Part shown: one piece after another, positions 14,194 through 46,619 of the stretch
How the letters are laid out: the number at the start of each line of letters is the position of its first letter
How positions within the stretch are numbered: the first letter of the stretch is position 1
Source: Patescibacteria group bacterium
Lineage (GTDB): Bacteria > Patescibacteriota > Microgenomatia > 0-14-0-10-38-17
NCBI GenBank assembly: GCA_050953885.1
Contig: JBMNNJ010000001.1
Span: forward strand, 207,437 to 271,436
Reading direction: 5' to 3'
DNA length: 64,000 nucleotides
The notes under the pieces: generated by a model
Seen by the model: only the letters and a program-made list of their open reading frames with translations
What the model was told of the DNA's origin: nothing
Database searches by the model: none
Translations under genes and position numbers: made by a program

Positions 14194-16696
14194 GCAAAAT
14201 TTTGCTGTTTATCCCCAAGAAATAGCCGCGGCCCAGCCTGATTAATTCTCCTAAATCCCGGGGCAGGCTTGAAGGCAAACTTTCTTCCGCCAAAGTTAAA
14301 CGTTGGGCGGCAGAAATAACAAAAGGATTATTAGGCGAGGGAGAAAGTTGCTCTAATTCTTCAAGAAGAGCTTTGGTTTCCTGATAGGCCAAAGCGGCTT
14401 TTCCCTCCGAGTAAATTTCTTCTTCATTTTCTGCCGCCGCCTCAAGATAAACAATCAGCTGATCAAGTTTTTTATTCATTTGATTTAGATCGTCGGGACT
14501 CGTCCCTTTTTCTTTTGCTTCTAAGGCGACCAAATTTTTTATTCGATAAGCATATTTTAAAGCCTCAACCGGGGAAATTTTCATTAAGGCTGTCAAATGC
14601 TCTAATTTTTCTGTCAAAAGAGAAGAAGAGGAGAAACCGGTTTTTAACTGACTAAGCATTTCCTGATCTTGCCGCTTTTCGCCACTGCTTTCCTTAGATT
14701 TAAGGCTAATTTTATCGGTGGCCTCAATTAAAAACTTATCTTCCTCGCCTAATTTAATTTCACCATGATATTCCCGCCAACTGGTCTCTTCACCCCGAGC
14801 CAAACCAACCCCCAAAACATATTCACCATCATCTACCCCTTTAACAACGACCTCTTTTTGCCAGTTGCTTGGCGGATTAGCAATAATAATTAGCTTTGGT
14901 TTATCTTGCTCCTCCTGACCAATAAAAATATTTTCGCTAAGAATACCCATAAGATTAATATCCAAATAAGCAGGAGAAAGGAGATAAAAAGCAAGATAGT
15001 CGGTGGCATTTCTCTCAAACAAAACATCACCATTAACGGCCGGAGGGGGAAGATTTAAAAAAGAAAAAATTTTCCCTAACGCTTCATTTTTACTAATAAT
15101 TTCGCCATGGTCAAAATTAAAGCCAGCAACATTGCCGGAAGAGTTCTCAAAAGGACGCGCGCTTTGTACTAAAACCGTCCCGTCTCCTCCAAACGAATAC
15201 TTTTTCTCAATAGGTTTTCCATGGGACCATTTTCCTAAAATTTGATCATACCAAGACCTCTCTTTAATTTTTACTCCCGATAAGGTATCTTTACCCTCAC
15301 CGTAAATTAGCTTTAAACTCTCCCCTAAATTTTCTGGCGGCGATAATTGGTTTAACAACGTGTTCTGTGGGTAAGCGGGGGAGGCAAAAGAGTAGGAAAG
15401 TGGTTCGTTCTCGTCTCCGGCGTAAAGATAGGAAAAAGTCGGCAGCATTTCTTCTGTTGAAGGAGCAAGACGCTGAACCGTTTGGTATAAGCTCTCTCCC
15501 TCCTGACGGGCAAGATGAAGAACTAAAGAAAAAGCAAATTTGGAAAGTCCCGGCCGCCAAACTTCCCCGCCTTCCCAAGCCCCATAGGTGTCAACCACCC
15601 CCTTGTGGGGCGTGCCTACGGTTATAAGCTGGTCAATGGGGCAACCGGATACTTGCTGAAGGCAAGTTCGCGCCACTAATCCTCCCATTGAATGGGCAAT
15701 CACATCCGCTTTTTGGCCTTCTTCCAGCTTCTCATTTAAAAAATCGGCTAATTTTTCGGCTGAACCCTTATTACCATCTTCCGATCTAATTTTTTCCAAC
15801 CAATTATAATTAAAAACAAAAAGATCCCTGCCTTCTTCGTAACCGGCATTTTCAAGCGCCGTAATTAAAGGGTTGTAAATCTTCACTCCCGGCATCATAT
15901 GCCAAGGAAAAGGGGATTCTTCCAAATGCGCAGGGGTATAAATATCCGGATAGCGAATTTTCAAAAACATCTCTCCAAAATTTATCGACGCCCCATGGCC
16001 GGGGACAATAACGACAGGATCTTTAATTTTAGTTACCTTGATATTGTCAAAATAGACTTCAGTAGGAGCAACAGCCCCGGTGCCAACACCTAACGCTATT
16101 CTTCCTCTTAAAAACGCATCATTTACGTTTGTATCCACAAAATCAATAAGCAAATTATTATTCTCATATATCTTAAAAATATTCTTATATGCCACAATTT
16201 TAAAATGATAAACTCCGTTACTTGGAGGCGACAAATTTTTGCCAGGAGTTAAGGGAATATAGTGGTCAGAAAAAAATTTAGCTAGATAAACAGTGTTAAA
16301 TGAAACATGTATACCATAACCTTGGGGCCAATTAAAAACATGCCCATTGCCATCGTCATAAGCAGATCTTTCGTCTCTCACCCTAAAAAAGAAATTAATA
16401 TCTTGGCCGGATTTCCTAATCAAATCAAATTCAAACTCATAATCATCCCATAAAAAATCTCCAGCTTGCACTTCTGTATAAGAAAAGTTATCGTTAACTT
16501 TACTACCAAAATAATGATTACCGTTATCCCCTTGTACAACACTCCACAAATAATCTCTCTTTTTATTTATAACAGTCCAACCTTCAAAAGAGCCATTTTC
16601 AAAATCATAATAAAAATTACTAGTCGCAAAAAGAGGTGTAGGAATAAGGAAGAAAAAAGCAAGAAAAAAGAAAAGCCATTTTACTTTTCGCCTCAT
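14186..16696 (-). CDS. large secreted alpha/beta-hydrolase (lipase/PGAP1-like) with an N-terminal jelly-roll (LamG/DUF1080-like) domain
   Basis: Signal peptide (MRRKVKWLFFFLAFFFLIPTPLFA), GxSxG nucleophile elbow VIAHSMGGLVAR, preceding PGHGAS segment. 836 aa. 3' end overlaps ftsZ by 8 bp in convergent orientation. Confidence 0.6.
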   Translation of the reverse strand: MRRKVKWLFFFLAFFFLIPTPLFATSNFYYDFENGSFEGWTVINKKRDYLWSVVQGDNGNHYFGSKVNDNFSYTEVQAGDFLWDDYEFEFDLIRKSGQDINFFFRVRDERSAYDDGNGHVFNWPQGYGIHVSFNTVYLAKFFSDHYIPLTPGKNLSPPSNGVYHFKIVAYKNIFKIYENNNLLIDFVDTNVNDAFLRGRIALGVGTGAVAPTEVYFDNIKVTKIKDPVVIVPGHGASINFGEMFLKIRYPDIYTPAHLEESPFPWHMMPGVKIYNPLITALENAGYEEGRDLFVFNYNWLEKIRSEDGNKGSAEKLADFLNEKLEEGQKADVIAHSMGGLVARTCLQQVSGCPIDQLITVGTPHKGVVDTYGAWEGGEVWRPGLSKFAFSLVLHLARQEGESLYQTVQRLAPSTEEMLPTFSYLYAGDENEPLSYSFASPAYPQNTLLNQLSPPENLGESLKLIYGEGKDTLSGVKIKERSWYDQILGKWSHGKPIEKKYSFGGDGTVLVQSARPFENSSGNVAGFNFDHGEIISKNEALGKIFSFLNLPPPAVNGDVLFERNATDYLAFYLLSPAYLDINLMGILSENIFIGQEEQDKPKLIIIANPPSNWQKEVVVKGVDDGEYVLGVGLARGEETSWREYHGEIKLGEEDKFLIEATDKISLKSKESSGEKRQDQEMLSQLKTGFSSSSLLTEKLEHLTALMKISPVEALKYAYRIKNLVALEAKEKGTSPDDLNQMNKKLDQLIVYLEAAAENEEEIYSEGKAALAYQETKALLEELEQLSPSPNNPFVISAAQRLTLAEESLPSSLPRDLGELIRLGRGYFLGINSKILLN

Positions 16697-16719
16697 ATTA
16701 AAAACAGAGCATTATTACA

Positions 16720-17532
16720 ATGTTAAAATACTATCATAATAAACATTACAACAACAAGTATATCAATAGAAACATGAAAGAAATCAAAAATACCGCTAAA
16801 AATTGGGCTACTATATGGGACAAAAAAAATAACCTCCCAATCGTTCACAGAGAACTAATAGAAGCTATTACTAAAACAACAGAAACTAAAAATAAAAAAG
16901 TTTTAGAGATAGGAGCTGGTTTAGGTGGGGACTTAGTGTATCTGGCTAAACTAGGAGGAATTTGTACAGCAATAGACATAAGCAAGACTTCTCTTAAAAA
17001 AATTAAGCAATTGGCCAAAAAAAATAACGTTCAGATAAAAGCAGTAAAATGTGATGCCAAAAAATTGATTTTCGATAAAGAAACTTTTGACATTATATTC
17101 CATCAGGGATTTTTGGAACATTTTAAAAATCCTCTTCCGCTACTTAAAGAGCAAAAAAGAGTTTTAAAGAAAGAAGGTATTCTTCTTATTGACGTACCAC
17201 AAAGATATAATGCTTACACTGTTTATAAACGATGGAAGTTATTAAAAAAAGAATGGGAGATACCATGGGAGACAGAATATACAAAAAAACACTTACTCAA
17301 AATGCTAGAAGATGCTGAATTAAAGCCAAAGCTAATTTATTATAGAAGTATATTCCCCCCCGGTATTAAAAAAATAATGAAAGGAGAAGTTCCTAAAAGG
17401 CTTCAATCAAAAAAAATAGTCAATAACAGACTATCACGTAAAATAATATTATATTTTGGGAAAATTATAAAAAAAAATGAACATTGCCCCTTTTTTTATC
17501 AATGTATTGGGGTTGTCGCCCAAAAGAAATAA
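16720..17532 (+). CDS. class I SAM-dependent methyltransferase; likely start at 16774
   Basis: Motif I VLEIGAGLGGD, motif II (acidic residue after beta2), FDIIFHQGFLEH motif. Confidence 0.7.
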   Translation: MLKYYHNKHYNNKYINRNMKEIKNTAKNWATIWDKKNNLPIVHRELIEAITKTTETKNKKVLEIGAGLGGDLVYLAKLGGICTAIDISKTSLKKIKQLAKKNNVQIKAVKCDAKKLIFDKETFDIIFHQGFLEHFKNPLPLLKEQKRVLKKEGILLIDVPQRYNAYTVYKRWKLLKKEWEIPWETEYTKKHLLKMLEDAELKPKLIYYRSIFPPGIKKIMKGEVPKRLQSKKIVNNRLSRKIILYFGKIIKKNEHCPFFYQCIGVVAQKK

Positions 17533-17637
17533 AGAAAGCGATTAAAAAGATTCTGTCCGCCAACTGGCGGATTCGTCAGAACCTGTCCTGAATTTAATTC
17601 AGGAATGACGGCCAACTAAAAATTTTTACTTAAAGAA

Positions 17638-18741
17638 ATGACCATTGGCCTTGACGCTCGTTTTGCCCAAGGAAAACTTACCGGCGTGGGAAAATATATC
17701 CAAGCCTTGGCCTTGGGCTTGGCGGCGTGGCATTTTAAAGTGATTCTTTTTTACTCGCAAAAGCCCCAATCAGTCCTAAGAAGGAAGGGGATCAAAACTA
17801 TTATTCTCCCCGGTAATAAATATCTCTGGGAACAAATTTATCTGCCCCGGGCCTTAAAAAGGGAAAAAGTGGATCTTTATCATGCCACCGGCAACTTTGG
17901 TGTTCCTCTTTTTTCAAACATTCCCGCCGTTTTAACCGTCCACGATCTTATCCCCCTCCTGCAAAAAGATTATTTCAACCACGCAAAAATTCCCGTCTTT
18001 TCCCAAAAACTTTATTACTGGCGCGCTAAAACCTCAATTATGAAGGCCCAAAAAATTATCACCGACACTTACTGGACAAAAAAGACGATCGTTGATTTTT
18101 TTAAAACCCCACCTCAAAAAATTAGCGTTATCTACTTAGATTCTTCTTATCCCGAAGAAATTGACGAAAAGGCTTATCTTCAGTTTGATCTTGAAAGAAA
18201 AAAATATCTTATCAACAATGGCGGCCTTGACCGGCGCAAGAATTTGCCCAACCTTATCGGCGCTTTTGCCTTAGCCGAAAGAAAAATGCCTTGGCTAAAA
18301 TTAGTCATCACGGGAGAAAACCCGCAACTACTTCCTTTATTAAAAAAAGAAGTGGAAGAAAAAAAATTAACCCAAAAAGTTATTTTCACCGGCTTTTTGG
18401 AAGAAAAAGCTCTTTGGGGACTTTTAAAAAATGCCTTTTGCCTTTGTTATCCCACCCTTGCGGAGGGCTTTGGTCTTCCTTTAATTGAAGCTTTCCGCGC
18501 CAACACACCGGTTATTACCAGCAACCTTCCGGTTTTAAAAGAAGTCGGGGGCAAGGCTTGCCTTTTTGTTAACCCCTATCAACCCCAAGCCATCGCCCAA
18601 ACAATTATCAGCCTGCAAAACAAAACCCTTCGGCAAAAACTAATCATTTCCGGCCAAAAACAAGCCCAAAAATTTTCTTGGGAGAAAACAATTGAAGAAA
18701 ACATTAAAATCTACAAAAAGATAATAAAAAATACTACTTAA
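17638..18741 (+). CDS. GT4-family glycosyltransferase
   Basis: GT-B fold, C-terminal EGFGLPLIEA E-x7-E motif. Confidence 0.8.
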   Translation: MTIGLDARFAQGKLTGVGKYIQALALGLAAWHFKVILFYSQKPQSVLRRKGIKTIILPGNKYLWEQIYLPRALKREKVDLYHATGNFGVPLFSNIPAVLTVHDLIPLLQKDYFNHAKIPVFSQKLYYWRAKTSIMKAQKIITDTYWTKKTIVDFFKTPPQKISVIYLDSSYPEEIDEKAYLQFDLERKKYLINNGGLDRRKNLPNLIGAFALAERKMPWLKLVITGENPQLLPLLKKEVEEKKLTQKVIFTGFLEEKALWGLLKNAFCLCYPTLAEGFGLPLIEAFRANTPVITSNLPVLKEVGGKACLFVNPYQPQAIAQTIISLQNKTLRQKLIISGQKQAQKFSWEKTIEENIKIYKKIIKNTT

Positions 18742-18894
18742 AAAGGCAAAAATGATAATAGAAGGAAATATAAACGAAACATAAAAAAGTAACCAAATCC
18801 AAAATAATTAATAAAAGAAAATTATCGCTAAAAAAAGCCCGAAATAATTAATAAGATAATTGATAAAAATTTAGAAAATTTTGTTCTGGCAATA

Positions 18895-18930
18895 TGACAA
18901 ATTTTTAAGCGATCGCTTAAAAATTTGTCA
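18895..18930. promoter_or_regulatory. perfect 36-bp palindrome TGACAAATTTTTAAGCGATCGCTTAAAAATTTGTCA followed by TATAAT; copy 1 of a 55-bp duplicated box
   Basis: Left half read directly against the reverse complement of the right half with no mismatch. A consensus -10 hexamer lies 6 bp downstream. Confidence 0.6.
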
Positions 18931-19096
18931 CACCCTATAATATAAATAATATAAAAATAGCTTGGATTAATTGAATTAAAATGGTTCAGAATAAATTAGT
19001 CTAAAATGGTTTAAAAATAAAGCGAGATAAAATTAAAATCAAAAAGTAAGCATCGTAAATATCAACAATCTTTTCTAATGTTAATTCTGGATAATT

Positions 19097-19843
19097 ATGG
19101 CCAAAAATTTTCGTTTTCGCGATAATTTTCTTCTGTCTTTAGCTTTTTTAGGAGATGAATTTCTTAACATCACCCAACCATATCCGCTTCAAGCAGAAAG
19201 ATGGGCTGGTTTACTGCCTCCTGATTATAAAAAAAGTAATTTAAAAAGAAATATTTACCGGCTGTTAAAGACGGAAGAAATAGAAAAAGTAGTTAAAAAC
19301 GGCCAGCCTTATTTAAGGCTAAGCAACCGGGGGAAAAAGATCATTACCCGTGATTTTTCCCTCATCGCCCTCCAAAATAAACCGTGGGATGGTTATTGGC
19401 GAATAATTGCCTATGATATTCCGGAAAAATATAAAAAAACCCGCTATTTACTTCAACAAGAACTTCAGACCCTGGGTTTTGGAATGATGCAAAAAAGCAT
19501 CTATATTTCTCCTCACGATCTTGCCGAAGATATCCAGGAATATTTAGAAAGTAATCATTTAAGCGATTTTGCTTTTGTATCGGTGGCGAAAAGGATTTTT
19601 GGGAAAAGTAATCGGGCCTTGGCTTGGGAAGTGTGGAATTTAGAAAAATTGGAAGAAAAATACGAAGAGTGGATTGAAAACAGCCAAATTTTCCGCCAGA
19701 AAAAAATAGAACTTATCAACAATTTAAGGAAATTCAAAATCGCTTTATCGAAATTCTTTACCAAGACCCCTTTCTCCCTAAAGAACTTTGCTTCGACAAT
19801 TGGGCTGGCGAAAAAGCAGTTAAAGAATTTAAAACGCTTTTAA
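19097..19843 (+). CDS. PaaX-like transcriptional regulator
   Basis: WDGYWRIIAYDIPE...R...L...GFGMMQKSIYISP matches the PaaX C-terminal signature. N-terminal winged-helix-like region. Confidence 0.55.
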   Translation: MAKNFRFRDNFLLSLAFLGDEFLNITQPYPLQAERWAGLLPPDYKKSNLKRNIYRLLKTEEIEKVVKNGQPYLRLSNRGKKIITRDFSLIALQNKPWDGYWRIIAYDIPEKYKKTRYLLQQELQTLGFGMMQKSIYISPHDLAEDIQEYLESNHLSDFAFVSVAKRIFGKSNRALAWEVWNLEKLEEKYEEWIENSQIFRQKKIELINNLRKFKIALSKFFTKTPFSLKNFASTIGLAKKQLKNLKRF

Positions 19844-19925
19844 AAACTCAATTAAATTATCATCAAGATGAGGTTTAAATATTGGACTATCGCGTTATCG
19901 GACGATAAATTACTTATGTTTAATA

Positions 19926-19961
19926 TGACAAATTTTTAAGCGATCGCTTAAAAATTTGTCA
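19926..19961. promoter_or_regulatory. second identical copy of the 36-bp palindrome plus TATAAT box
   Basis: The 55-bp stretch AATATGACAAATTTTTAAGCGATCGCTTAAAAATTTGTCACACCCTATAATATA is identical to 18892-18946. Confidence 0.6.
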
Positions 19962-20322
19962 CACCCTATAATATATAACAGCTATATAACAACTTAGATA
20001 ATTAACTTAGATAATTAACTTAGATAACTAAAATGGTAGTAAAAGTAGAACAATACAATAAGAAAATGACTATAGACGCAAATGGAATAACAAATCTTCT
20101 CCCGAAGAGATAAACAAATAGTTCACACTAAAAAACAAGCGCACACTAAAACGTGCTAATCCAATTTATAGCAAAGTAGCAGACTTTAACCCGCGCCAAG
20201 AAAAGCGCGCAATAAATTGTGCTACTCTATTTTTTCTAGAGTAGCAATTAAACTTTATCTAGCCATATTTATATCCCGGTTATAATAATATCCAACACTC
20301 AAGAATAATTAACACCAAAAAA

Positions 20323-36166: not shown

Positions 36167-36280
36167 CCCCAATCCCCGCTCCTCTTGAGGAAAAAAAAGC
36201 TCCTAAGGGTAAAATAAAAAGTGCTATTTAGAAACCGCGTTTATAAGCTAACCAACGCCGGGGGGGGTTAAATAGCTTTT

Positions 36281-36622: not shown

Positions 36623-37049
36623 TTTTAGTTTTCCCGGAAGAATTTAATTGCTCAAAGGTTTACAATATCTTACCTAAAAAATTGAAATAAGGCAATTTTT
36701 AACCTGTCATTGTGAAGCTAATCAACGCCGGGGGTTAAATAGCTTCATCTGAAGAACGCAGATCCTGACTTTCGTCAGGATGACAGCTACGGGGATGATT
36801 CCCGCCAGGCGGATTCGTCAGAGCTTGTCCTGAATTTAATTCAGGAATGACAGCTACGATTAGTGTGCCTATTTAAATCCGGGGGTTTGAAGCTATCAAG
36901 GAAAGCGCTTTTACTGCGAATAATTAATAATAGTTAATATTATCTGCCTTTGGCGCAAAAATCCCGAGGTTCGAAGCTATTTAACTCCGGGGGTTTGAAG
37001 CTATTTATTCAAATTATTAGGAGCATAACCCCTATGTTAAACTAAATTT

Positions 37050-37718
37050 ATGAAAAAGTTCTTTCTGCCTTTTCTTGGCCTCATCGCTCTTTTTCTAGGT
37101 CTTAATAACCTTAATCTTCGCCAGGAAATTCAAAAATTAACCGCCCAAAACAAAGTTATCGAAGTTATTGACGGCGATTCTCTAACCTTAGCCTCCAAAC
37201 AAAGAGTTCGCCTGGCCAATCTTGATGCTCCCGAATTGGAGTTTTGCGGCGGCATTGAAGCGAAGAATAAACTTGAATCCCTCACTCTAAATAAGACTGT
37301 CCGCTTGGAAATAATCGGCCACGACAACCTGAACCGCTCGATTTCTTTAGTTTATGTTGACAATACTCTGGTTAACGAAATCGTTCTCAAAGAGGGCTGG
37401 GCTCGCTATGACGGCTCGCCTTCGCCGGAAAAAGAAAAATTAAAACAAGCTTATGATTATGCCTTTGAAAACCGGCTAGGGATTTTCAGCCCCTTGTGTT
37501 TTTCCGAAGAGCCACCCAGCCCCAAATGCCTAATTAAAGGCAATGTCGACCGCCATTATGGCCAAAAAACCTATCATTTCCCCGGTTGTAGTGGTTATCC
37601 CCAAGTAATGGTAGAAAAAGACTTAGGCGAAGATTGGTTTTGTTCAGAAAAAGAAGCTGAAAAAGCTGGCTTTACCAAATCCAAAAATTGCTATGGTAAA
37701 ATATACGTTCCTATTTAA
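37050..37718 (+). CDS. secreted thermonuclease (staphylococcal-nuclease/SNase-like) with a Cys-containing C-terminal module
   Basis: Signal peptide. SNase active-site region RLANLDAPE, OB-fold. C-terminal KGNV...YHFPGC...WFCSEKEAEKAGF module. Confidence 0.8.
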   Translation: MKKFFLPFLGLIALFLGLNNLNLRQEIQKLTAQNKVIEVIDGDSLTLASKQRVRLANLDAPELEFCGGIEAKNKLESLTLNKTVRLEIIGHDNLNRSISLVYVDNTLVNEIVLKEGWARYDGSPSPEKEKLKQAYDYAFENRLGIFSPLCFSEEPPSPKCLIKGNVDRHYGQKTYHFPGCSGYPQVMVEKDLGEDWFCSEKEAEKAGFTKSKNCYGKIYVPI

Positions 37719-37951
37719 CCCCCGGAGTTAAATAGCTTCAAACCTCGGGAAAAATATATAATTTTGAACTTACCTCTCCGGCGCGAGCGCCAAAACTACT
37801 GGGCAGGTAGACAAAAATTTAAAACTCTGTTAAAATAGAGAAAACCGAAGAAAAACCAAATATTTGTTTGAAAATTAAAGCTGATGGTAGCATAAAAAGG
37901 CTAAGAGGGATTTCTGGCTTGCTAAAAAATTTTTAATCATCCTTATTACTC

Positions 37952-38556: not shown

Positions 38557-39345
38557 ATGTCTTCGAAGAGGCGCTTGAAGAAAAGCTGTAAAGTTTCTAC
38601 TACAATACAAATGGGCATTACTGGCAACAATAAAAAAACAAAAACCGAAATCTGTCACAAACATTTCTTGCAAATTCAAGAAAAGTTAGCTACTAACACG
38701 TGGGCAAAAGAAAAACCTAAAGGGAAAAAAGAAATAATAAAACTCTTAAGAATTTGCAATCAGGCATTTGGGAAAATTCCTGGATATATTAAAGTTCTTA
38801 AATCAATATCAAAAAACTTAAATGAAAACGATTCAATTAAATGGCTAAATTATTTTTCTCAAATTCGATGTGCATATTATCTACAAACACAAGGGGTTAG
38901 TATTACCGCCTTTGAGAAAAAAGTAAATGGAAAATTAATTGATTTAGAAATAAATGAGGCAACGCTTTGTGAAGTTAAATCTTTCGAACCTCAACTTAAA
39001 AAAACAGAAAACGCAATAGAATTAGAGGAAGATGTCTTTAAAAACTTTCTTGAAAATAAAATTAAAAAGGCTCTAGATGAACAAAAAGCTGACTTAGTTA
39101 TAATTGATGATATTTTTTCTTATGAATCTAAAATCTACAGATTTTTAAATTATTTCTTATCGTTCATTAATGATCCTGGTACTGAGCGTTATGAAATGAT
39201 CCAAAAAAAATTTGGTAAATATCTACCTAAAATTCTAATTCTAAGTTTTACAAGCTCAATGGCCATTAATCCCATTATCAGAGACCCAATGGGTAGCGAG
39301 TGGGTTAAAATATTGTCATTAAACAAAGCCAAAAATCATGAATAA
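38557..39345 (+). CDS. AT-rich orphan protein; weak PD-(D/E)xK-like arrangement (IDLEINE...CEVKS)
   Basis: Intact 262-aa ORF, compositionally more AT-rich than its neighbours, bracketed by family C repeats. Confidence 0.4.
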   Translation: MSSKRRLKKSCKVSTTIQMGITGNNKKTKTEICHKHFLQIQEKLATNTWAKEKPKGKKEIIKLLRICNQAFGKIPGYIKVLKSISKNLNENDSIKWLNYFSQIRCAYYLQTQGVSITAFEKKVNGKLIDLEINEATLCEVKSFEPQLKKTENAIELEEDVFKNFLENKIKKALDEQKADLVIIDDIFSYESKIYRFLNYFLSFINDPGTERYEMIQKKFGKYLPKILILSFTSSMAINPIIRDPMGSEWVKILSLNKAKNHE

Positions 39346-39571
39346 AAAAAGCTATTCGACCCCCGGAATTGATTAGCTTCAAAACTCGGGAAAAATATGT
39401 AATTTTGAACGTGCCTCTCCGGCACGGGCGCCAAAACCACCTGGCCAGGTAGCTGAAAAACCTAGCCTTAATCACCCCAAGGGTTGATTAAGGCACTCCT
39501 ATCGAGTATACTTGTACAATACTTCAAGGCACTACCGATAATTTACGCCAATACGCATAAATTTAAAATTC

Positions 39572-39958
39572 ATGATAAAATCTAAAATAAAAGAATTAAG
39601 TTATGAAAAAATGAAAGAAATCGAGAATTTAACAAAAGAGATTGTTTCTTTTCGAGACGAAAGAGAATGGAAACAATTTCATAACCCGAAAGACATGTCT
39701 TTGTCTCTAGTTCTGGAAGCAGGAGAAGTGATGGAGCACTTCCAGTGGAAAAACGGAGAAGAGATGGAAAAATATGTTACCGAGCATAAAGATGAAATTG
39801 GCGAAGAGCTTGCTGACGTTTTATATTGGATTTTGCTTATAAGCCACGACCTTAATATAAACATTCTCGAAGCTTTAGAAAAAAAAATAAAGAAAAATAA
39901 AGAAAAATATCCTGTAGAAAAAGCAAAGGGAAGACATACAAAATATACAGATCTTTAG
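39572..39958 (+). CDS. MazG-like nucleoside-triphosphate pyrophosphohydrolase (all-alpha NTP-PPase)
   Basis: EAGEVMEHFQW (E-x-x-E) and EELADVLYWILLIS (E-E-x-x-D) metal-binding motifs, 128 aa. Confidence 0.75.
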   Translation: MIKSKIKELSYEKMKEIENLTKEIVSFRDEREWKQFHNPKDMSLSLVLEAGEVMEHFQWKNGEEMEKYVTEHKDEIGEELADVLYWILLISHDLNINILEALEKKIKKNKEKYPVEKAKGRHTKYTDL

Positions 39959-39981: not shown

Positions 39982-40689
39982 ATGCTCTCCAAAAGAAAAA
40001 ATAAGCTCGTAGCAAAAAAGAAATTGCAAGAGGGACATAGAGAAAGATTGCGGCAAAGATTTTTACAAGGAGGACTCGATTCCTTCCTCGATTACGAAGT
40101 TGTTGAATTACTTTTGACGCTAGGAACCCCCCGCAGGGATTGCAAGTCTATTGCTAAAGAAATAATTAAAAAATTTGGAAATTTATGTAACGTTCTTGAT
40201 GCTTCTCCGGAAGATCTGCAAGAAATATATGGCGTAGGCCCTAACAACATATTTGGTTTAAAATTATTTCAGGCAATATCAGAGCGATATACCGGCGAAA
40301 AAATTCAAAAAAAAGAAATTCTCAATAACCCTAAGGCAGTATTTGATTACCTTAAAAATCTTATTGGAAAAGAGAAAAAAGAAAGCTTTGTGGTTATATC
40401 ATTAAACTCAAAAAACCAATTAGTCAAAATTAATAAAATATCGTTAGGAACTGTTGATGCAAACATTGTGCACCCTAGAGAAGTCTTCCAAGCAGCCATT
40501 AAAAATTTAGCAACGCAAATAATTATAGCCCATAATCATCCCTCGGGTAGCCTAGAGCCGTCTCCGGAAGATGTTGCTTTAACTAGGCAATTGTTAGAAG
40601 CTTCTTCAATCTTAAGCATTCCGCTCATTGATCATATAATTGTTACCAACAAGGAATACTTAAGCATGAAGGAACATAATTTCATATAG
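39982..40689 (+). CDS. radC: RadC-like JAB/MPN-domain protein with an N-terminal HhH
   Basis: N-terminal HhH (EIYGVGP) and JAMM motif IIIAHNHPSGSLEPSPEDVALT. Starts 24 bp after the mazG-like stop. Confidence 0.85.
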   Translation: MLSKRKNKLVAKKKLQEGHRERLRQRFLQGGLDSFLDYEVVELLLTLGTPRRDCKSIAKEIIKKFGNLCNVLDASPEDLQEIYGVGPNNIFGLKLFQAISERYTGEKIQKKEILNNPKAVFDYLKNLIGKEKKESFVVISLNSKNQLVKINKISLGTVDANIVHPREVFQAAIKNLATQIIIAHNHPSGSLEPSPEDVALTRQLLEASSILSIPLIDHIIVTNKEYLSMKEHNFI

Positions 40690-40695
40690 GCTGAA

Positions 40696-42564
40696 ATGAT
40701 TCTTTACGAAGGAACAATTGAACAATTTAATCAAGATGTTATCCAAAACTGCATCGCTGACAGGGCGGCCGAAAAATATCAAGCCCACTACAATAGAAGA
40801 CCCAACAATTCAGAGTACCGTTCATGGGCTTACTCTCTGGCTATACTTAACAATTCTTTCCGTTATGCAAATCTTAAAGACAATTATGTTCTTCTTGAGT
40901 ATGAGCTTCCATACTCCTCACAAAGAATAGATGTTATACTTTTCGGAGAAAATTATCAGGACCAAAAAAATGTTGTCGTGATCGAATTAAAACAATGGTC
41001 CAATGATAATGTGTCACCCGCAGAATCAAAAGGAAATGTAATTGTTAATTACGGAAGATTTAAAAAAGAAGAACCTCATCCCTCTTTGAAAGTTCAGGGA
41101 TACCATTTTTATCTCAAGGATTTTATAAAGCTTTTTACTGAAAAGAATGCTCCCAACCTTAACTCTTTGGCATATGCTCATAATTATTCCCGAGAAAGAG
41201 GGGGCGTGTTGTTTTCTGATGAGTTTCAATCTGCTTTAGCGGAATTTCCTCTATTTGCAAAAGAAGATTCGATTAAGTTAGCAAACTACTTAAAAGATCG
41301 GCTAAGTAAAGGGAGAGGACAAATTCTTTACGAACGATTTGCTAGAAGCAAAATTGGCCCCTCTAAAAAGCTTCTCGCACATACTTCAGAAATGATTAAT
41401 AAGCAACAAGTTTTTAATTTAATTGACGACCAAATCGCTGCTTATAATGCAATAATGCACAAAGCAAAAAAGCTCTCGGGAACAGAAGAAAAGTCAGTGA
41501 TTTTAGTTAATGGTGGCCCAGGTACCGGCAAATCGGTTATCGCTTTGGAAGTTATGGGAGAGCTTTTAAGACAGGGTAAAAAGGTGGTTCATGCTACTGG
41601 GTCATCAGCTTTTACTAATACATTAAGGAGTCTTGTTGGTTTAAGGGCTAAAAATCTTTTCAAATTTTTTAACAGCTTCACAAGAGCGAACCCTAATTGT
41701 TTTGATGTTCTAATTTGTGATGAAGCTCATCGGATAAGGGAGTCAAGTGCGGATAGATACACCCCAAAAGAGCTAAGGACCAATGACCCCCAAATAGATG
41801 AATTGCTACGAGTTGCCAACCTCAGTGTTTTTTTTATAGATGAATATCAAATTGTAAGACCAAATGAAGTGGGTAGCATCGAAATGATTAAGAACGCAGC
41901 TAAAAGATTTAATATCAAAACCAAAAATATTATCGAATTTGAGCTGAAAACACAGTTTCGTTGTTCCGGCTCCGATGCTTACCTTCAATGGCTTGATAAT
42001 GTCTTAGGGATCAGAGAAACAGGGATTACCGAATTTGATACTAAAATGGAGTTTAAAATATTTGAAAATCCTCAAAAAATGATGAACGAAATTAGGGAAA
42101 GGAATAAGGAAAAGCCCAACTCTGCTCGTATAGTTGCTGGTTTTTGCTGGCCATGGAGTAACCCTCGGCCAGACGGATCGCTAGTGAATGATGTAAAAAT
42201 TGGAGATTTCGAAATGCCTTGGGAAAAAAAGAATCAATTTTGGAAGTGGGCAACAGATAAATCAGGCATGGAGCAAGTTGGCACTGTCTATACTGCTCAA
42301 GGGATGGAGTTTGATTATATCGCGGTAATTTTTGGTAACGACCTTGTTTATAACCCCCAAAAAAATGAATGGGAAGCAATACCTGAAAATTCTTATGACA
42401 CACAGGTTAAGAGAAACAACCCTAATCTAGAAAATCACTTAAAGCATGTTTACCGTGTTTTAATGTCTCGTGCCCATATGGGAGTTTATGTTTATTTTAT
42501 GGATAAAAAAACAGAAGATTATTTTAGAAGACATTTGCCCAAGCTCCCTTCTGCTTCTAAGTAA
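40696..42564 (+). CDS. DUF2075-type protein: N-terminal PD-(D/E)xK-like nuclease module fused to an SF1 P-loop helicase (Nhi-like)
   Basis: RIDVILFGE...VVVIELKQW (D...E-x-K), Walker A NGGPGTGKSV, Walker B DEAH box VLICDEAHRI, C-terminal VYTAQGMEFDYIAV UvrD-C-like motif. Starts 7 bp after radC. Confidence 0.75.
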   Translation: MILYEGTIEQFNQDVIQNCIADRAAEKYQAHYNRRPNNSEYRSWAYSLAILNNSFRYANLKDNYVLLEYELPYSSQRIDVILFGENYQDQKNVVVIELKQWSNDNVSPAESKGNVIVNYGRFKKEEPHPSLKVQGYHFYLKDFIKLFTEKNAPNLNSLAYAHNYSRERGGVLFSDEFQSALAEFPLFAKEDSIKLANYLKDRLSKGRGQILYERFARSKIGPSKKLLAHTSEMINKQQVFNLIDDQIAAYNAIMHKAKKLSGTEEKSVILVNGGPGTGKSVIALEVMGELLRQGKKVVHATGSSAFTNTLRSLVGLRAKNLFKFFNSFTRANPNCFDVLICDEAHRIRESSADRYTPKELRTNDPQIDELLRVANLSVFFIDEYQIVRPNEVGSIEMIKNAAKRFNIKTKNIIEFELKTQFRCSGSDAYLQWLDNVLGIRETGITEFDTKMEFKIFENPQKMMNEIRERNKEKPNSARIVAGFCWPWSNPRPDGSLVNDVKIGDFEMPWEKKNQFWKWATDKSGMEQVGTVYTAQGMEFDYIAVIFGNDLVYNPQKNEWEAIPENSYDTQVKRNNPNLENHLKHVYRVLMSRAHMGVYVYFMDKKTEDYFRRHLPKLPSASK

Positions 42565-42755
42565 CCTATTAAAACGAAGGCGTAAGGGCCCTAACGACTA
42601 TAATTAATAAAAAATTTTATTAGAAAAATAAAAGCTTGCAGGCATAAAAAACGGAGTAGCCAATTTTTTGCTAGGCTCTATGAGCTCAACCAAGAATTCG
42701 AAGCTATTTAACCCCCGGAGTTGATTAGCTTGATAACCTTAACTCAAATAAAACT

Positions 42756-43199
42756 TTAATTTTCTTCAGGCTTAAATTGTCCATCTTCGTATACATATTT
42801 CACTTCAGTCAGGTCGTTTGAGTTAACTTCTTCTGCATAAAGCAAAGTAAAACCATTCCCTACTTCTACCTCCTCTGGGGATTGCTTAACTCCAATCCTC
42901 ATCTTTTCATCACTTTCAAAAACAACCCTGCCTTCATCAATAACCCACAGCTTACCTGCTCCTTGAGTCATAGCTACAGGAATTATTACTAAACTTTCTG
43001 ACAAATCATCTCCATCCACATCCATACTAAAGTATTCTGGACACCTTCCTAAAAAACATTCCGGAAGTTCTTGACTTACAATTTTTTCTTTTTGAGCAGG
43101 AACGTTAATTTTTGTACTTCTTGAAAAATATCCAATCGCAAAACCTAAAAGGATAAAAATTAAATAGGCTAAAAACTTGCCTACTGTAATCTTAGACAT
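42756..43199 (-). CDS. small membrane-anchored hypothetical protein convergent on the island operon
   Basis: N-terminal TM helix, acidic C-terminal domain. Confidence 0.45.
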   Translation of the reverse strand: MSKITVGKFLAYLIFILLGFAIGYFSRSTKINVPAQKEKIVSQELPECFLGRCPEYFSMDVDGDDLSESLVIIPVAMTQGAGKLWVIDEGRVVFESDEKMRIGVKQSPEEVEVGNGFTLLYAEEVNSNDLTEVKYVYEDGQFKPEEN

Positions 43200-43313: not shown

Positions 43314-44585
43314 TGCGTGAAATGCTTGAAATGCATGAGACGTTTGAAACGTAAAAACATTAAACGGTTCAGGCGATTCAAGCCTCAAGCTTTGAAGCAT
43401 CAAGTCTTAAGGCAGATCCTGATTTTCATCAGGATGACAACTACCTTGATTCAGAATCAGTTAGCTAAAAGTTAAAATTCAAAATTTAAAAGTCAAAAGT
43501 ACAAGTCAAAATTCAAAAGTAGAGCAAAAAACTTTTAACTTTTAACTTGTCCGCCGGCAGGCGGATTCGTTAAAATGACGGCCACGATTAGCGTCATTCT
43601 GAACTTGATTCAGAATCGTTATTATTGTCAGAAAACACAGATCCTGACTTTCGTCAGAGCCTGTCCTGAATTTAATTCAGGAATGACAGTTACCTTGATT
43701 CAGAGTCGTTATTAATGTCAGAAAACGCAGATCCTGACTTTCGTCAGGATGACGGTTGCGATTAGCGTCATTCTGAACTTGATTCAGAATCTGTGTTATT
43801 GTCAAAAAACGCAGATCCTGACTTTCGTCAGGATGACGGTTACAGGTTCTGACTTTCGTCAGAATGACGGTTACGGGACTACAGGAATAACCCTGCCCAC
43901 CAGCCGACGGACAAGTTAAAACTCAAAACTCAAATGTCAAATCTCAAAACTACATGTTAAAACTTAAAACTACATGGTAAATGTTAAAACTTTTTAAAGC
44001 TTAATTCGTCAGAATGATGACAGCCGTGCCGTCATTCCGGACTTGATCCGGAATCGGTGTTAATGCCTAAAGAACGCAGATCCTGACTTTCGTCAGGATG
44101 ACGGTTATCTGAAGAACGCAGATCCTGACTTTCGTCAGGATGACGGCCACGATTAGCGTCATTCCGGACTTGATCCGGAATCGGTGTTATTGTCAGAAAA
44201 CGGTAGATCCTGACTTTCGTCAGGATGACGGCTACGGGGATGATTCCCGCCAAGCGGATTCGTCAGGATGACGACAGTCGTGCCGTCATTCCGGACTTGA
44301 TCCGGAATCGGTGTTAATATCTGAAGAACGCAGATCCTGACTTTCGTCAGGATGACAGCTATGGGGATGATTCCCGCCAGGCGGATTCGTCAGAATGACG
44401 GCCACGATTAGCGTCATTCTGAACTTGATTCAGAATCAGTTAGATCCTGACTTTCGTCAGGATGACGCTTTCGTCAGAGCCTGTCCTGAATTTAATTCAG
44501 GAATGACGGCCACGGCAGGATAATTTTATTCGCTCATTCGTGTTGATTCGTTTCCCATTCGCGTTGCTTCGTGTCTTTGGTCCAA
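43314..44585. repeat. about 1.25-kb BIME/REP-like composite array: one family D 100-bp unit, CAAAA/AAAGT low-complexity tract, CCGCCAGCTGGCGG-type palindromes, more than 20 short hairpins in repeating units of about 95 bp, ending in a CGAAT-periodic unit
   Basis: Three hairpin types (ATCCTGAC-TTTC-GTCAGGAT, ATTCTGAA-CTTGA-TTCAGAAT, TCCTGAATT-TAA-TTCAGGA) each followed by ATGACGG. They recur with conserved linkers such as GCGATTAGCGTC and GTTATTGTCAGAAAACGCA. No unique spacers. Confidence 0.85.
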
Positions 44586-44644: not shown

Positions 44645-45400
44645 ATGAATCACTACCGCCAACGGGAAACCAATCTTTACCAGCCCGGCCAGGAAAGACC
44701 TTTTTGGTTAAGCCGCTCCAAGATTGATCTTTTTTTGGAATGCCCCCGCTGTTTTTACCTTGACCGCCGCTTGGGTTTGAGCCGTCCCGGCATGCCTTCT
44801 TTTTCCCTAAACTCCGCCGTTGACCAGCTTTTAAAAAATGAATTTGACCTCCTGCGCCAAGAAGGCAAACCCCACCGGCTGATGGAAAAATACCGCATTG
44901 AGGCCATTCCCCTAAATCATCCCGATCTTCCCCTCTGGCGCGACGATGTCCACCGCTGGGAAGGGGCCCATGTTCACCACCAGCCCACCAATTTTGAAAT
45001 AAGCGGCATTGTTGACGACATCTGGGTAGACCGGAAAAATAATTTCTACATTGTGGACTACAAATCCACCAGCACCACAGCGGAGATTTCCCTTGAAGAT
45101 GAATACAAGCAAGGTTATAAAAAACAAATCGAGGTTTACCAGTGGATTTTTAGAAAAATGGGCTTTAGCGTTGCCAACACCGCCTATTTTGTCTACGCCA
45201 ACGCCAGCAAAAACCGCCCCCGCTTTGACGGCCGTTTGGAATTTGAGGTGCAAATTATCACCTACGAGGGCAATGACGCGTGGGTAGAGCCCACCCTTAA
45301 GGAGATTAAAAAATGCCTTGATTCCCCCAAAGTGCCCGCCGCCGACCCCGATTGCGAATATTGCCGTTATCGCCAATTAATCAGCCAGAAACTTAAATGA
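44645..45400 (+). CDS. Cas4/RecB-like PD-(D/E)xK nuclease with Fe-S cluster cysteines (stand-alone)
   Basis: IVDDIWVD...FYIVDYKST (D...D-x-K) core. N-terminal CPRCFYL and C-terminal C-x13-C-x2-C cysteines. Confidence 0.65.
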   Translation: MNHYRQRETNLYQPGQERPFWLSRSKIDLFLECPRCFYLDRRLGLSRPGMPSFSLNSAVDQLLKNEFDLLRQEGKPHRLMEKYRIEAIPLNHPDLPLWRDDVHRWEGAHVHHQPTNFEISGIVDDIWVDRKNNFYIVDYKSTSTTAEISLEDEYKQGYKKQIEVYQWIFRKMGFSVANTAYFVYANASKNRPRFDGRLEFEVQIITYEGNDAWVEPTLKEIKKCLDSPKVPAADPDCEYCRYRQLISQKLK

Positions 45401-45734: not shown

Positions 45735-46310
45735 TGATTTATGCGAATTGAGACGAACGAAAAACGAATTAACACGAAAAATAAACTCAAATCTCAAATC
45801 TCAAAACGCAAAACTACATGGTAAATGTTAAAACTTTTTAAAGCTTAATTCGCCAGCGGGCGGATAAAATCATGCGTGAAATGCTTGAAATGCAGGAGAC
45901 GTTTGAAACGTAAAAACATTAAACGGCTCAGACAATCAAGCCTCAAGCGTTTCAAGCATCAAGCTTTAAGACAGATCCTGACTTTCGTCAGGATGACGGT
46001 TACGGGGATGATTCCCGCCAGGTGGATTCGTCAGAATGATGACAGCCGTGCCGTCATTCCGGACTTGATCCAGAATCAGTGTTATTGTCAGAAAACGCAG
46101 ATCCTGACTTTCGTCAGGATGACAGCTACCTTGATTCAGAATCGTTATTAATACCTAAAGAACGCAGATTCTGACTTTCGTCAGAATGACGGTTACGGAA
46201 AGCGTCAGGATGACGACAGCCGTGCCGTCATTCCGGACTTGATCCGGAATCTGTGTTATTATCAGAAAACGCAGATCCTGACTTTCGTCAGGATGACAGC
46301 TACAGGTTTG
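45735..46310. repeat. composite repeat array (CGAAT-periodic unit, CAAAA tract, family D 100-bp unit, hairpin cluster)
   Basis: Built from the same modules as 43314-44585. The ORF-track 'proteins' here (45876-46151, 46155-46367) are repeat translations. Confidence 0.8.
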
Positions 46311-46337
46311 ATTTTTGCATTTTGAATTTATTCTTAT

Positions 46338-46619
46338 ATGGTTCAGGCTAAAATCTCCGTTTCTCATCTGGCCAAATTAGCCAACCTCCATCTTTCTTCC
46401 CCAGAAGAAAAATTAATCGGCCCCCAAATTGAGGAAGTGGTGGGCTCTTTTTCGGTTTTGGACCGCGTTTCGGCTTTGGAAAAACTTCCCCCCACTTTTC
46501 AGGTGGGCCAAAACGAGAATATTCTCCGGCCCGACGAGGTTCAACCCTCCCTGGCGCGCCCAAAAATTCTTGGCAAAAATACTTTTTTTACCACCAAAGC
46601 CGTTTTAACCAAAAAATGA
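46338..46619 (+). CDS. gatC: Asp/Glu-tRNA amidotransferase subunit C
   Basis: ISVSHLAKLANLHLSSPEEKLIGPQIEEVV matches the GatC core. Immediately upstream of gatA. Confidence 0.8.
   Translation: MVQAKISVSHLAKLANLHLSSPEEKLIGPQIEEVVGSFSVLDRVSALEKLPPTFQVGQNENILRPDEVQPSLARPKILGKNTFFTTKAVLTKK

Follow-up and report, generated by a model that had tools for sequence, protein, structure and literature searches.

The 64,000-nucleotide stretch of a Patescibacteria group bacterium genome analysed here at its full length (contig JBMNNJ010000001.1, positions 207,437 to 271,436; hereafter, the window) encodes, at window positions 40696-42564 of the plus strand, a one-chain protein that joins a restriction-type nuclease to a helicase. 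We confirmed that this protein shares its architecture and superfamily with the immunity proteins Nhi and Nhi-like, and sequence comparison indicates that its family is a large, horizontally mobile sister branch of these proteins, of common origin, distinct and uncharacterised. The reading that we favor, and consider probable, is that the protein is a DNA-targeting enzyme of this sister branch, encoded by the last gene of a mobile MazG-like, RadC, and nuclease-helicase unit and directed against phages or plasmids. The type of enzyme is already known; the association with these partners is new and testable.

A restriction-type nuclease and a Schlafen-type helicase in one chain

The gene is a single open reading frame (ORF), as a first-pass annotation of the sequence had described it, and its product is identical to a database entry from a Patescibacteria metagenome-assembled genome (P0001) that is labelled "DUF2075 domain-containing protein." The features of the gene and of the encoded protein (residue numbers in amino acids, aa; SF1B, superfamily 1B) are as follows.

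40696-42564, plus strand: nuclease-helicase ORF, 622 aa plus stop, ATG start
40696-41190, plus strand: N-terminal PD-(D/E)xK nuclease domain, aa 1-165, from the order of secondary structures in the AlphaFold2 model and from Foldseek
40897-40899, plus strand: E68, acidic residue of core strand 1, invariant
40930-40932, plus strand: D79, the D of PD-(D/E)xK (RID, in RIDVILF), invariant; aligns with the D of Nhi FDLL and of Nhi-like RRPD
40984-40992, plus strand: E97-L-K99, the ExK of PD-(D/E)xK (VIELKQW), invariant; aligns with Nhi IELK and Nhi-like IECK
41077-41103, plus strand: HPSLKVQGY, family motif HPSxQVxxY (RecB/Cas4-type QxxxY), with K132 replacing Q
41191-41415, plus strand: helical linker, aa 166-240, with a conserved PSKKL segment, from the alignment and the AlphaFold2 model
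41416-42534, plus strand: DUF2075/SLFN-group-3 type SF1B helicase, aa 241-613, from Pfam PF09848 and Foldseek
41512-41535, plus strand: Walker A/motif I, GGPGTGKS, aa 273-280; G273, G276, G278, and K279 invariant
41719-41733, plus strand: Walker B/motif II, DEAHR, aa 342-346; D342 and E343 invariant, H345 and R346 at 96-97% (95-representative alignment)
42292-42315, plus strand: motif V, TAQGMEFD, aa 533-540; Q535, G536, and E538 at 95% or more
42451-42471, plus strand: motif VI, YRVLMSR, with arginine finger R592; Y586 and R592 invariant

The AlphaFold2 model of the N-terminal 238 aa taken alone (predicted local distance difference test, pLDDT, 96.5) comprises a helix at 38-57, strands at 64-70 (E68), 77-85 (D79), and 91-99 (closed by E97 and K99), three short strands, a helix at 129-143, and a strand at 154-161. 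This is the alpha-beta-beta-beta-alpha-beta order of the PD-(D/E)xK core, with the D in strand 2 and the ExK in strand 3. The first-pass annotation had placed a D...ExK arrangement within predicted beta strands of a nuclease of about 120 aa; the motifs lie there, but the domain is larger, the core reaching about residue 165 and the helical linker about residue 240. No variation is seen at the four candidate catalytic residues (E68, D79, E97, and K99) in an alignment of 93 family members (29-83% identical to the query), in a separate 39-sequence alignment of the N-terminal domain, or in the 120 closest relatives. Both of the outcomes that the first-pass annotation had named as refuting it, a missing nuclease core and a lack of conservation of these residues, are contradicted by these results. 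The Q of the HPSxQVxxY motif is found in 116 of these 120 and in 96% of the distant relatives, K132 being confined to the window's protein and three others. PD-(D/E)xK nucleases account, with weak scores, for 11 of the 14 top Foldseek matches of the domain (Can2, NucS/EndoMS, BsoBI, Card1, BstEII, SfsA, EcoO109I, and Bax1), and Hachiman HamA, Cap4, Exo5, and Bse634I appear further down the list. Membership in the NERD family (Pfam PF08378) was rejected, as its match to residues 60-147 (17.8 bits, E=0.005) falls below the gathering cut-off of 22.1 bits. A sequence search of the PDB returned P-loop matches and nothing beyond them.

The helicase domain is matched over the complete length of PF09848, formerly DUF2075 and now "Schlafen group 3 DNA/RNA helicase domain": residues 266-603 cover positions 1-354 of the 354-position model with 285 bits (E=1.3e-84; gathering cut-off, 24 bits). 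The P-loop, the DEAH Walker B, and the TxxQGxEFD-like motif, all of which had been recognised from the sequence at first pass, occupy their expected places. The protein had also been called a DEAH-box SF1 helicase, and here the motor is indeed of the SF1B type, with motifs I, II, III, V, and VI conserved or invariant and SF1B enzymes as its nearest folds, whereas DEAH describes only the letters of motif II; "DEAH-box" as a family name usually denotes superfamily 2 (SF2). The AlphaFold2 model of the full-length protein, computed from the 93-sequence alignment, has a pLDDT of 94.8 and a predicted template-modelling (TM) score of 0.93. Foldseek relates it to the SLFN11 helicase, DSH9, RecD2, Ighmbp2, Dda, Dna2, nsp13, and Upf1 in the PDB (E between 1e-12 and 1e-8), with no match spanning the whole protein (TM about 0.3). 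The invariant positions in the 93 sequences are E68, D79, E97, K99, P129, Q246, G273, G276, G278, K279, D342, E343, D382, Q385, Q420, R422, W509, G529, Y586, and R592; this conservation and the PF09848 score greatly exceed chance expectation.

Among 1.84 billion cluster representatives, searched exhaustively, 3660 clusters proved related at E<=1e-3 and 642, counted at 50% identity, at E<=1e-30. Most of the related clusters are of about 620 aa and can be aligned from residue 1 to about residue 614. Some members carry further domains, namely, Peptidase_S24 (LexA-like), N6_Mtase, Type_ISP_C, caspase (Peptidase_C14), and PNP_UDP_1, fused at the C-terminus (P0121 and P0126) or at the N-terminus (P0151, P0174, P0185, and P0192). 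Four loci (L064, L065, L069, and L074) have ORFs of about 800-820 aa, which by length alone is the size of the S24-fused form, and retain an adjacent MazG-like gene.

The relationship to Nhi and Nhi-like was established by profile comparison. Nhi (SERP2475) combines an N-terminal PD-(D/E)xK nuclease with a DUF2075 SF1 helicase, and mutants in either lose immunity, both domains thus being required; its helicase is bipolar, its C-terminal glyoxalase-like domain is poorly conserved, and its degradation of DNA has been demonstrated biochemically (Bari et al., bioRxiv 10.1101/776245). The anti-phage activity of Nhi-like was verified with system SG141 of Bacillus cereus FSL H8-0482, the name resting on a predicted N-terminal nuclease plus PF09848 (Millman et al., 10.1101/2022.05.11.491447). 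The architectures that define both names, a PD-(D/E)xK domain and a DUF2075 helicase on one polypeptide and an N-terminal nuclease with PF09848, respectively, are present in the 622-aa protein. Against a profile of 15 Nhi family sequences (Supplementary File 1 of Bari et al.), hhalign gave a probability of 99.2% (E=2.7e-19, 422 columns, 16% identity), placing RiD/VELKQW opposite FDLL/NIELKS with the helicase motifs in register. For Nhi-like, the verified sequence from the supplement of Millman et al. was used together with a full-length B. cereus plasmid ortholog that is 96.7% identical over the 399 aa available. The ortholog aligned at 99.7% (E=6.9e-27, 551 columns, 21% identity), residues 2-614 matching 3-604 of 611, and BLASTP against the verified sequence gave E=1e-8 with 23% identity over 354 aa.

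Membership in the Nhi family by sequence, assessed by BLAST to SERP2475 (a tBLASTn criterion) and by the PADLOC Nhi model, was rejected: BLASTP finds only the P-loop (E=0.002), and the model match is partial (48.6 bits, aa 242-470 only). The other top PADLOC models were AbiO and, with the best score, PDC-S41 (PDLC05014); PDC-S41 was rejected as a different paralog, its 74 bits being fragmented into three pieces, versus E=6e-242 for a true member that neighbors one of the homologs. Thus, the Nhi-type assignment made at first pass stands for superfamily and architecture, with collinear homology over both domains, but at 16-23% identity the protein appears to be a member of neither characterised family. 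We treat the family as a separate branch because no defence-system model covers the whole protein.

A MazG-like and RadC gene cassette in mobile and defence contexts

The term "single-polypeptide," which had been applied to the system, is true of the enzyme rather than of the functional unit, as the gene belongs to a conserved cassette with two further genes.

39572-39958, plus strand: MazG-like all-alpha NTP pyrophosphohydrolase, 128 aa, DCTPP1/RS21-C6-like (Pfam PF12643, E=2e-17)
39982-40689, plus strand: RadC-family protein, 235 aa, N-terminal helix-hairpin-helix plus JAB/JAMM domain (Pfam RadC, E=3e-43)

In the window, the MazG-like gene is followed after 23 nt by RadC and, 6 nt further on, by the nuclease-helicase gene. 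The MazG-like protein matches PF12643 with 63.6 bits (cut-off, 27), and its metal motif EAxExxE...EExxD is conserved in the window's protein and in 29 homologs adjacent to nuclease-helicase genes. Its nearest solved structures are the archaeal pyrophosphatase 4qgp and the mouse and human dCTP pyrophosphatase 1 (RS21-C6), at E of about 1e-19. The RadC protein matches NCBIfam NF000642 with 222 bits (cut-off, 180) and has an intact JAMM motif, HNHPSG...S..D. All three genes occur together in 8 of 8 loci, comprising the window and seven close relatives (70-72% identity), in the order RadC-MazG-helicase or MazG-RadC-helicase, with junctions mostly of 2-8 nt (extremes, a 4-nt overlap and a 114-nt gap). 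The identities of the three proteins to their close relatives covary (RadC, 59-65%; MazG, 53-70%; helicase, 70-72%), the trio is constant, and each of the eight loci has its own, unrelated flanking genes; thus, the unit behaves as a mobile cassette. Beside one close relative, whose cassette has a MazG-like gene of its own, a second and different MazG-family gene lies about 1.1 kb downstream (L089, 9002-9316).

Beyond this clade, we examined 80 loci with 30-50%-identical relatives from GTDB species genomes, adjacency being scored in 77 of them. MazG-like homologs are present in 31 of the 80, and a profile search placed the gene next to the helicase gene, in the same orientation, in 29 of the 77, mostly upstream with junctions that overlap or measure <=20 nt, sometimes downstream. 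The hosts of these pairs include Thermoplasmata, Firmicutes, Bacteroidota, Proteobacteria, Acidobacteria, and Chloroflexota, and no other neighbor is widely conserved among the distant loci. RadC was rejected as a universal partner, with homologs in 0 of the 80 loci, and is specific to the close clade. Two ORFs flanking the unit, at 38557-39345 (plus strand, 262 aa) and 42756-43199 (minus strand, 147 aa), were excluded from it, as they lack matches at curated cut-offs in Pfam, NCBIfam, and PADLOC and counterparts beside the homologs. The association with MazG-like proteins, and with RadC in the window's clade, is apparently unreported for Nhi and Nhi-like proteins: none of the papers in the library searched mentions both MazG and DUF2075, and neither partner matched a PADLOC model. 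MazG is listed among predicted, not validated, defence domains (DefensePredictor, Science 2026; PMC13092281).

Several lines of evidence bear on mobility. Relatives retain about 70% identity across Patescibacteria, "Bathyarchaeia," Fibrobacteraceae, and others, and full-length copies are found on 33 bacterial and archaeal plasmids. Of 105 matching plasmids, 89 were typed as non-mobilizable, and relatives occur in only 4 of 50,697 phage records. The cassette has a GC content of 0.357 versus 0.417 for the window; a second low-GC stretch, at 16000-20000 (0.34 versus about 0.42), may be another acquired region.

The contexts of the relatives include defence islands. The Priestia aryabhattai plasmid NZ_CP083270.1 (L093, 5548-8866) has an apparent MrcB_N, MazG-like, and DUF2075 operon, with an overlap between the MrcB_N gene and the beginning of the MazG-like one; on its flanks are a restriction endonuclease, an ABC-three-component system, and a type I restriction-modification (R-M) system. 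In another locus (L006, 3930-4880), MrcB_N, a 5-methylcytosine reader, is fused to HNH immediately downstream of the nuclease-helicase. On the Hymenobacter canadensis plasmid NZ_CP114769.1 (L092, 4904-8890), tandem DUF2075 paralogs of 618 and 629 aa lie in an R-M island, with a cluster of restriction endonuclease, methyltransferase, and DUF4747 genes upstream of them; a nucleotide pyrophosphohydrolase is encoded separately, about 6 kb away. The flanks of the locus of the close relative P0060 encode AbiEii, an OLD-type TOPRIM ATPase, PDDEXK_3, and NYN. A scan of the 126 nearest flanking ORFs found HNH_2 (5), Fic (3), DNA methylases, KAP NTPase, type I restriction endonuclease, McrBC, PD-Lambda-1/5, and several PDC candidates, along with ordinary metabolic genes. 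These plasmid and island contexts, together with the fusions to N6 methylase, Type ISP, S24, and caspase domains, point, at the level of sequence, to defence; the fusions to methylase and Type ISP domains speak for an activity of the restriction type that involves translocation on DNA.

The unit is bracketed by two copies of a palindrome.

39349-39379, no strand assigned: 31-nt imperfect palindrome (AAGCTATTCGAC-CCCCGGA-ATTGATTAGCTT), upstream boundary of the three-gene unit
42701-42731, no strand assigned: 31-nt palindrome, exact consensus copy, downstream boundary of the three-gene unit

The palindrome (AAGCTATTTAAC-CCCCGGA-GTTGATTAGCTT, about 31 nt) is found at 36245, 36715, 36870, 36975, 37711, 38506, 39349, 42701, and 43275, with further copies at 2411, 34513, 50845, 59076, 59918, and 59966. 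It occupies many intergenic gaps, from 36.2 to 43.3 kb nearly all of them, bracketing single genes or small operons, and none of the copies lies between the three cassette genes. An interpretation as an integron attC site, with RYYYAAC/GTTRRRY-like ends, was rejected, as the copies occur across the window, they are far shorter than attC, and no integrase was seen. The palindrome is probably a repetitive extragenic palindromic (REP) or terminator-like element spread throughout the window. A 94-nt direct repeat (37711-37804 and 39352-39445, 85% identical) consists of the palindrome plus about 60 more bases; one copy is located downstream of the SNase gene and a second upstream of the gene for the MazG-like protein, and the repeat may represent a shared regulatory or mobile sequence. 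Dense interleaved hairpin repeats, partly with a period of about 127 nt (e.g., GCAGATCCTGACTTTCGTCAGGATGACGG and TTCTGAACTTGATTCAGAA), are found at 43400-44520, 45790-46340, and 36750-36880. Arrays of these, filling non-coding stretches of about 1.1 kb and 0.5 kb, flank a PDDEXK_1/Cas4-like nuclease gene (44645-45400, plus strand; Pfam E=8e-16; PADLOC Cas4 models down to E=2e-11) whose product has C-terminal cysteines. The spacing of the arrays is irregular and hence not CRISPR-like, they have no Rfam match (none was found anywhere between 36 and 47 kb), and neither cas genes nor a CRISPR array was seen near the Cas4-like gene. Promoter and terminator consensus scans performed no better than on shuffled sequence and were not used as evidence.

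Proposed mechanism and competing explanations

By analogy with Nhi, the most likely course of action is that ATP hydrolysis would move the SF1B motor along the DNA of an invading phage or plasmid, and that the metal-dependent PD-(D/E)xK nuclease carried by the motor would cut or degrade this foreign DNA. An anti-phage function for the branch as a whole, the choice of this substrate, and a cooperation of the three proteins are what we infer from the observed architecture, motif conservation, remote homology, gene pairing, and contexts. The MazG-like partner would act on the nucleotide pool, with dCTP or a modified dCTP as its probable substrate, and two outcomes may be envisaged: phage DNA synthesis could be starved or de-modified, or the host DNA could be kept free of modified nucleotides and in this way escape the nuclease. 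RadC, a JAB-domain protein, would be a clade-specific third component, possibly regulatory. More tentatively, and as a rather doubtful extension, the MazG-like protein and the nuclease-helicase, with or without RadC, may constitute an undescribed multi-gene defence system of bacteria and archaea, in which the pyrophosphatase's control of dCTP or modified dCTP sets self/non-self discrimination or potency. That cytosine or DNA modification might be the discriminating signal is suggested by the combination of phage escape from Nhi-like through methylase loss, the substrate preference of DCTPP1, and the MrcB_N neighbors; we regard this as unlikely or, at best, doubtful.

A number of observations weigh against the proposed defence function. 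Foldseek matches of the N-terminal domain to solved nucleases are weak (best E=4e-3), and K132 (41089-41091) departs from the near-invariant Q of the QxxxY motif. Identity to the validated Nhi and Nhi-like proteins is only 16-23%, and none of the PADLOC defence-system models covers the protein in full. MazG may be dispensable, given that 48 of the 77 distant loci lack the gene and that the verified Nhi-like is active by itself. Pfam and PADLOC recognised no defence gene among the window's immediate neighbors, which are GNATs, an SNase, and unassigned ORFs; RadC and MazG are classically annotated as "repair" and "house-cleaning" proteins, and several close relatives of the nuclease-helicase adjoin the housekeeping genes ClpB, MnmA, and AlaS.

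The main rival explanation is that the unit is a housekeeping operon for DNA repair or replication maintenance, in which RadC, MazG, and a Dna2/AddAB-like enzyme process damaged DNA and sanitise the dNTP pool of a genome-reduced bacterium. It would accommodate the match of RadC to its curated model, the proximity of the MazG-like protein to the house-cleaning enzyme DCTPP1, the presence of Dna2 and RecD2 among the helicase fold matches, the ClpB, MnmA, and AlaS neighbors, and the LexA-like S24 domain of some family members, with its link to DNA damage. However, identity of about 70% across unrelated phyla and archaea, together with plasmid carriage, is a poor fit to a vertical core function; each close relative has different flanks, and the cassette lies in a low-GC patch. 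Recurrent R-M, Abi, HNH, and McrBC neighbors, like fusions to methylase, Type ISP, and caspase domains, mark conflict systems, and among characterised proteins the closest homologs serve in immunity. Given the spread of the genes by horizontal transfer, their occurrence on plasmids and in islands, and the domain fusions, a repair operon appears unlikely.

A sharper form of the explanation that we favor is a modification-dependent, type IV-like restriction, in which the enzyme attacks DNA with modified cytosine and MazG, for self-protection, keeps the host DNA unmodified by hydrolysing modified dCTP. DCTPP1, to which the partner is closest, prefers 5-substituted dCTPs, and McrBC and HNH_2 neighbors recur. 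MrcB_N genes stand directly beside the helicase gene in two loci, once with the MazG operon (L093) and once as the HNH fusion (L006); these are rare, however, and could be independent type IV systems sharing the island. Phages escape the verified Nhi-like by inactivating or losing their own DNA methylase (10.1101/2022.08.27.505566), but escape from staphylococcal Nhi came about through mutations in the phage single-stranded DNA-binding protein (SSB), not methylation. No modified-base reader domain was recognised in the 622-aa protein. We give this version a low probability. Finally, the cassette could be cargo serving the mobile element itself, in DNA replication, processing, or counter-defence, rather than host immunity. 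The cassette is mobile, relatives are encoded in four phage records and on many plasmids, and phages and other mobile elements often carry RadC-like and MazG genes. Yet integrase, replication, and transfer genes are absent beside the cassette in the window and in close relatives, occurrence in phage records is very rare, and most of the matching plasmids are of the non-mobilizable type; we consider element cargo very improbable.

Nhi-type single-chain nuclease-helicases have recently been recognised as a form of nucleic-acid immunity, and the present branch is very large, reaching Patescibacteria and archaea, in which, to our knowledge, defence systems have been little tested experimentally. 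The MazG pairing offers a concrete two-gene system in which to ask whether nucleotide-pool control and DNA degradation are coupled, and it bears on sensitivity to DNA modification, as seen for Nhi-like, as a possible common thread. Should a MazG-containing defence system prove real, it would be the first case of a MazG-family enzyme as an obligate component of an immune system.

Comparison with known systems

The closest comparison is with Nhi-like. The two share a length class (611 versus 622 aa), the order of PD-(D/E)xK domain, helical linker, and PF09848, the corresponding motifs (RRPD...IECK versus RID...IELK), and carriage on plasmids in some hosts. They differ in that the B. cereus gene is solitary, with gaps of 340-440 bp around it and neither MazG nor RadC, and protects as a single cloned gene, whereas the window's gene is the third of a cassette. 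Their N-terminal domains also show different weak affinities, to HSDR_N in Nhi-like and to NERD in the 622-aa protein. With Nhi, the protein shares a single chain along which helicase motifs I-VI align in register, as do the D and ExK motifs. In contrast, the C-terminal glyoxalase/bleomycin-resistance domain of Nhi is absent from the 622-aa protein, which instead has the AGFCWPWS...PW...W insert typical of canonical PF09848 that is unaligned in Nhi, and the partner genes differ.

More distant systems share single elements of this design. Like PDC-S41, the family is one of DUF2075 proteins, PDC-S41 being another of these. The human Schlafens (SLFN11, SLFN5, and SLFN14) share the PF09848 helicase, and SLFN11 is the top structural match of the full model, but the eukaryotic proteins have an N-terminal Schlafen-core RNase in place of the PD-(D/E)xK domain. 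The Type ISP enzymes of the LlaGI/LlaBIII type resemble those family members (P0151 and P0174) that combine nuclease, motor, N6 methylase, and Type ISP specificity domain in one chain; the 622-aa protein itself has neither methylase nor specificity domain, and the classical Type ISP enzymes are built on an SF2 motor.

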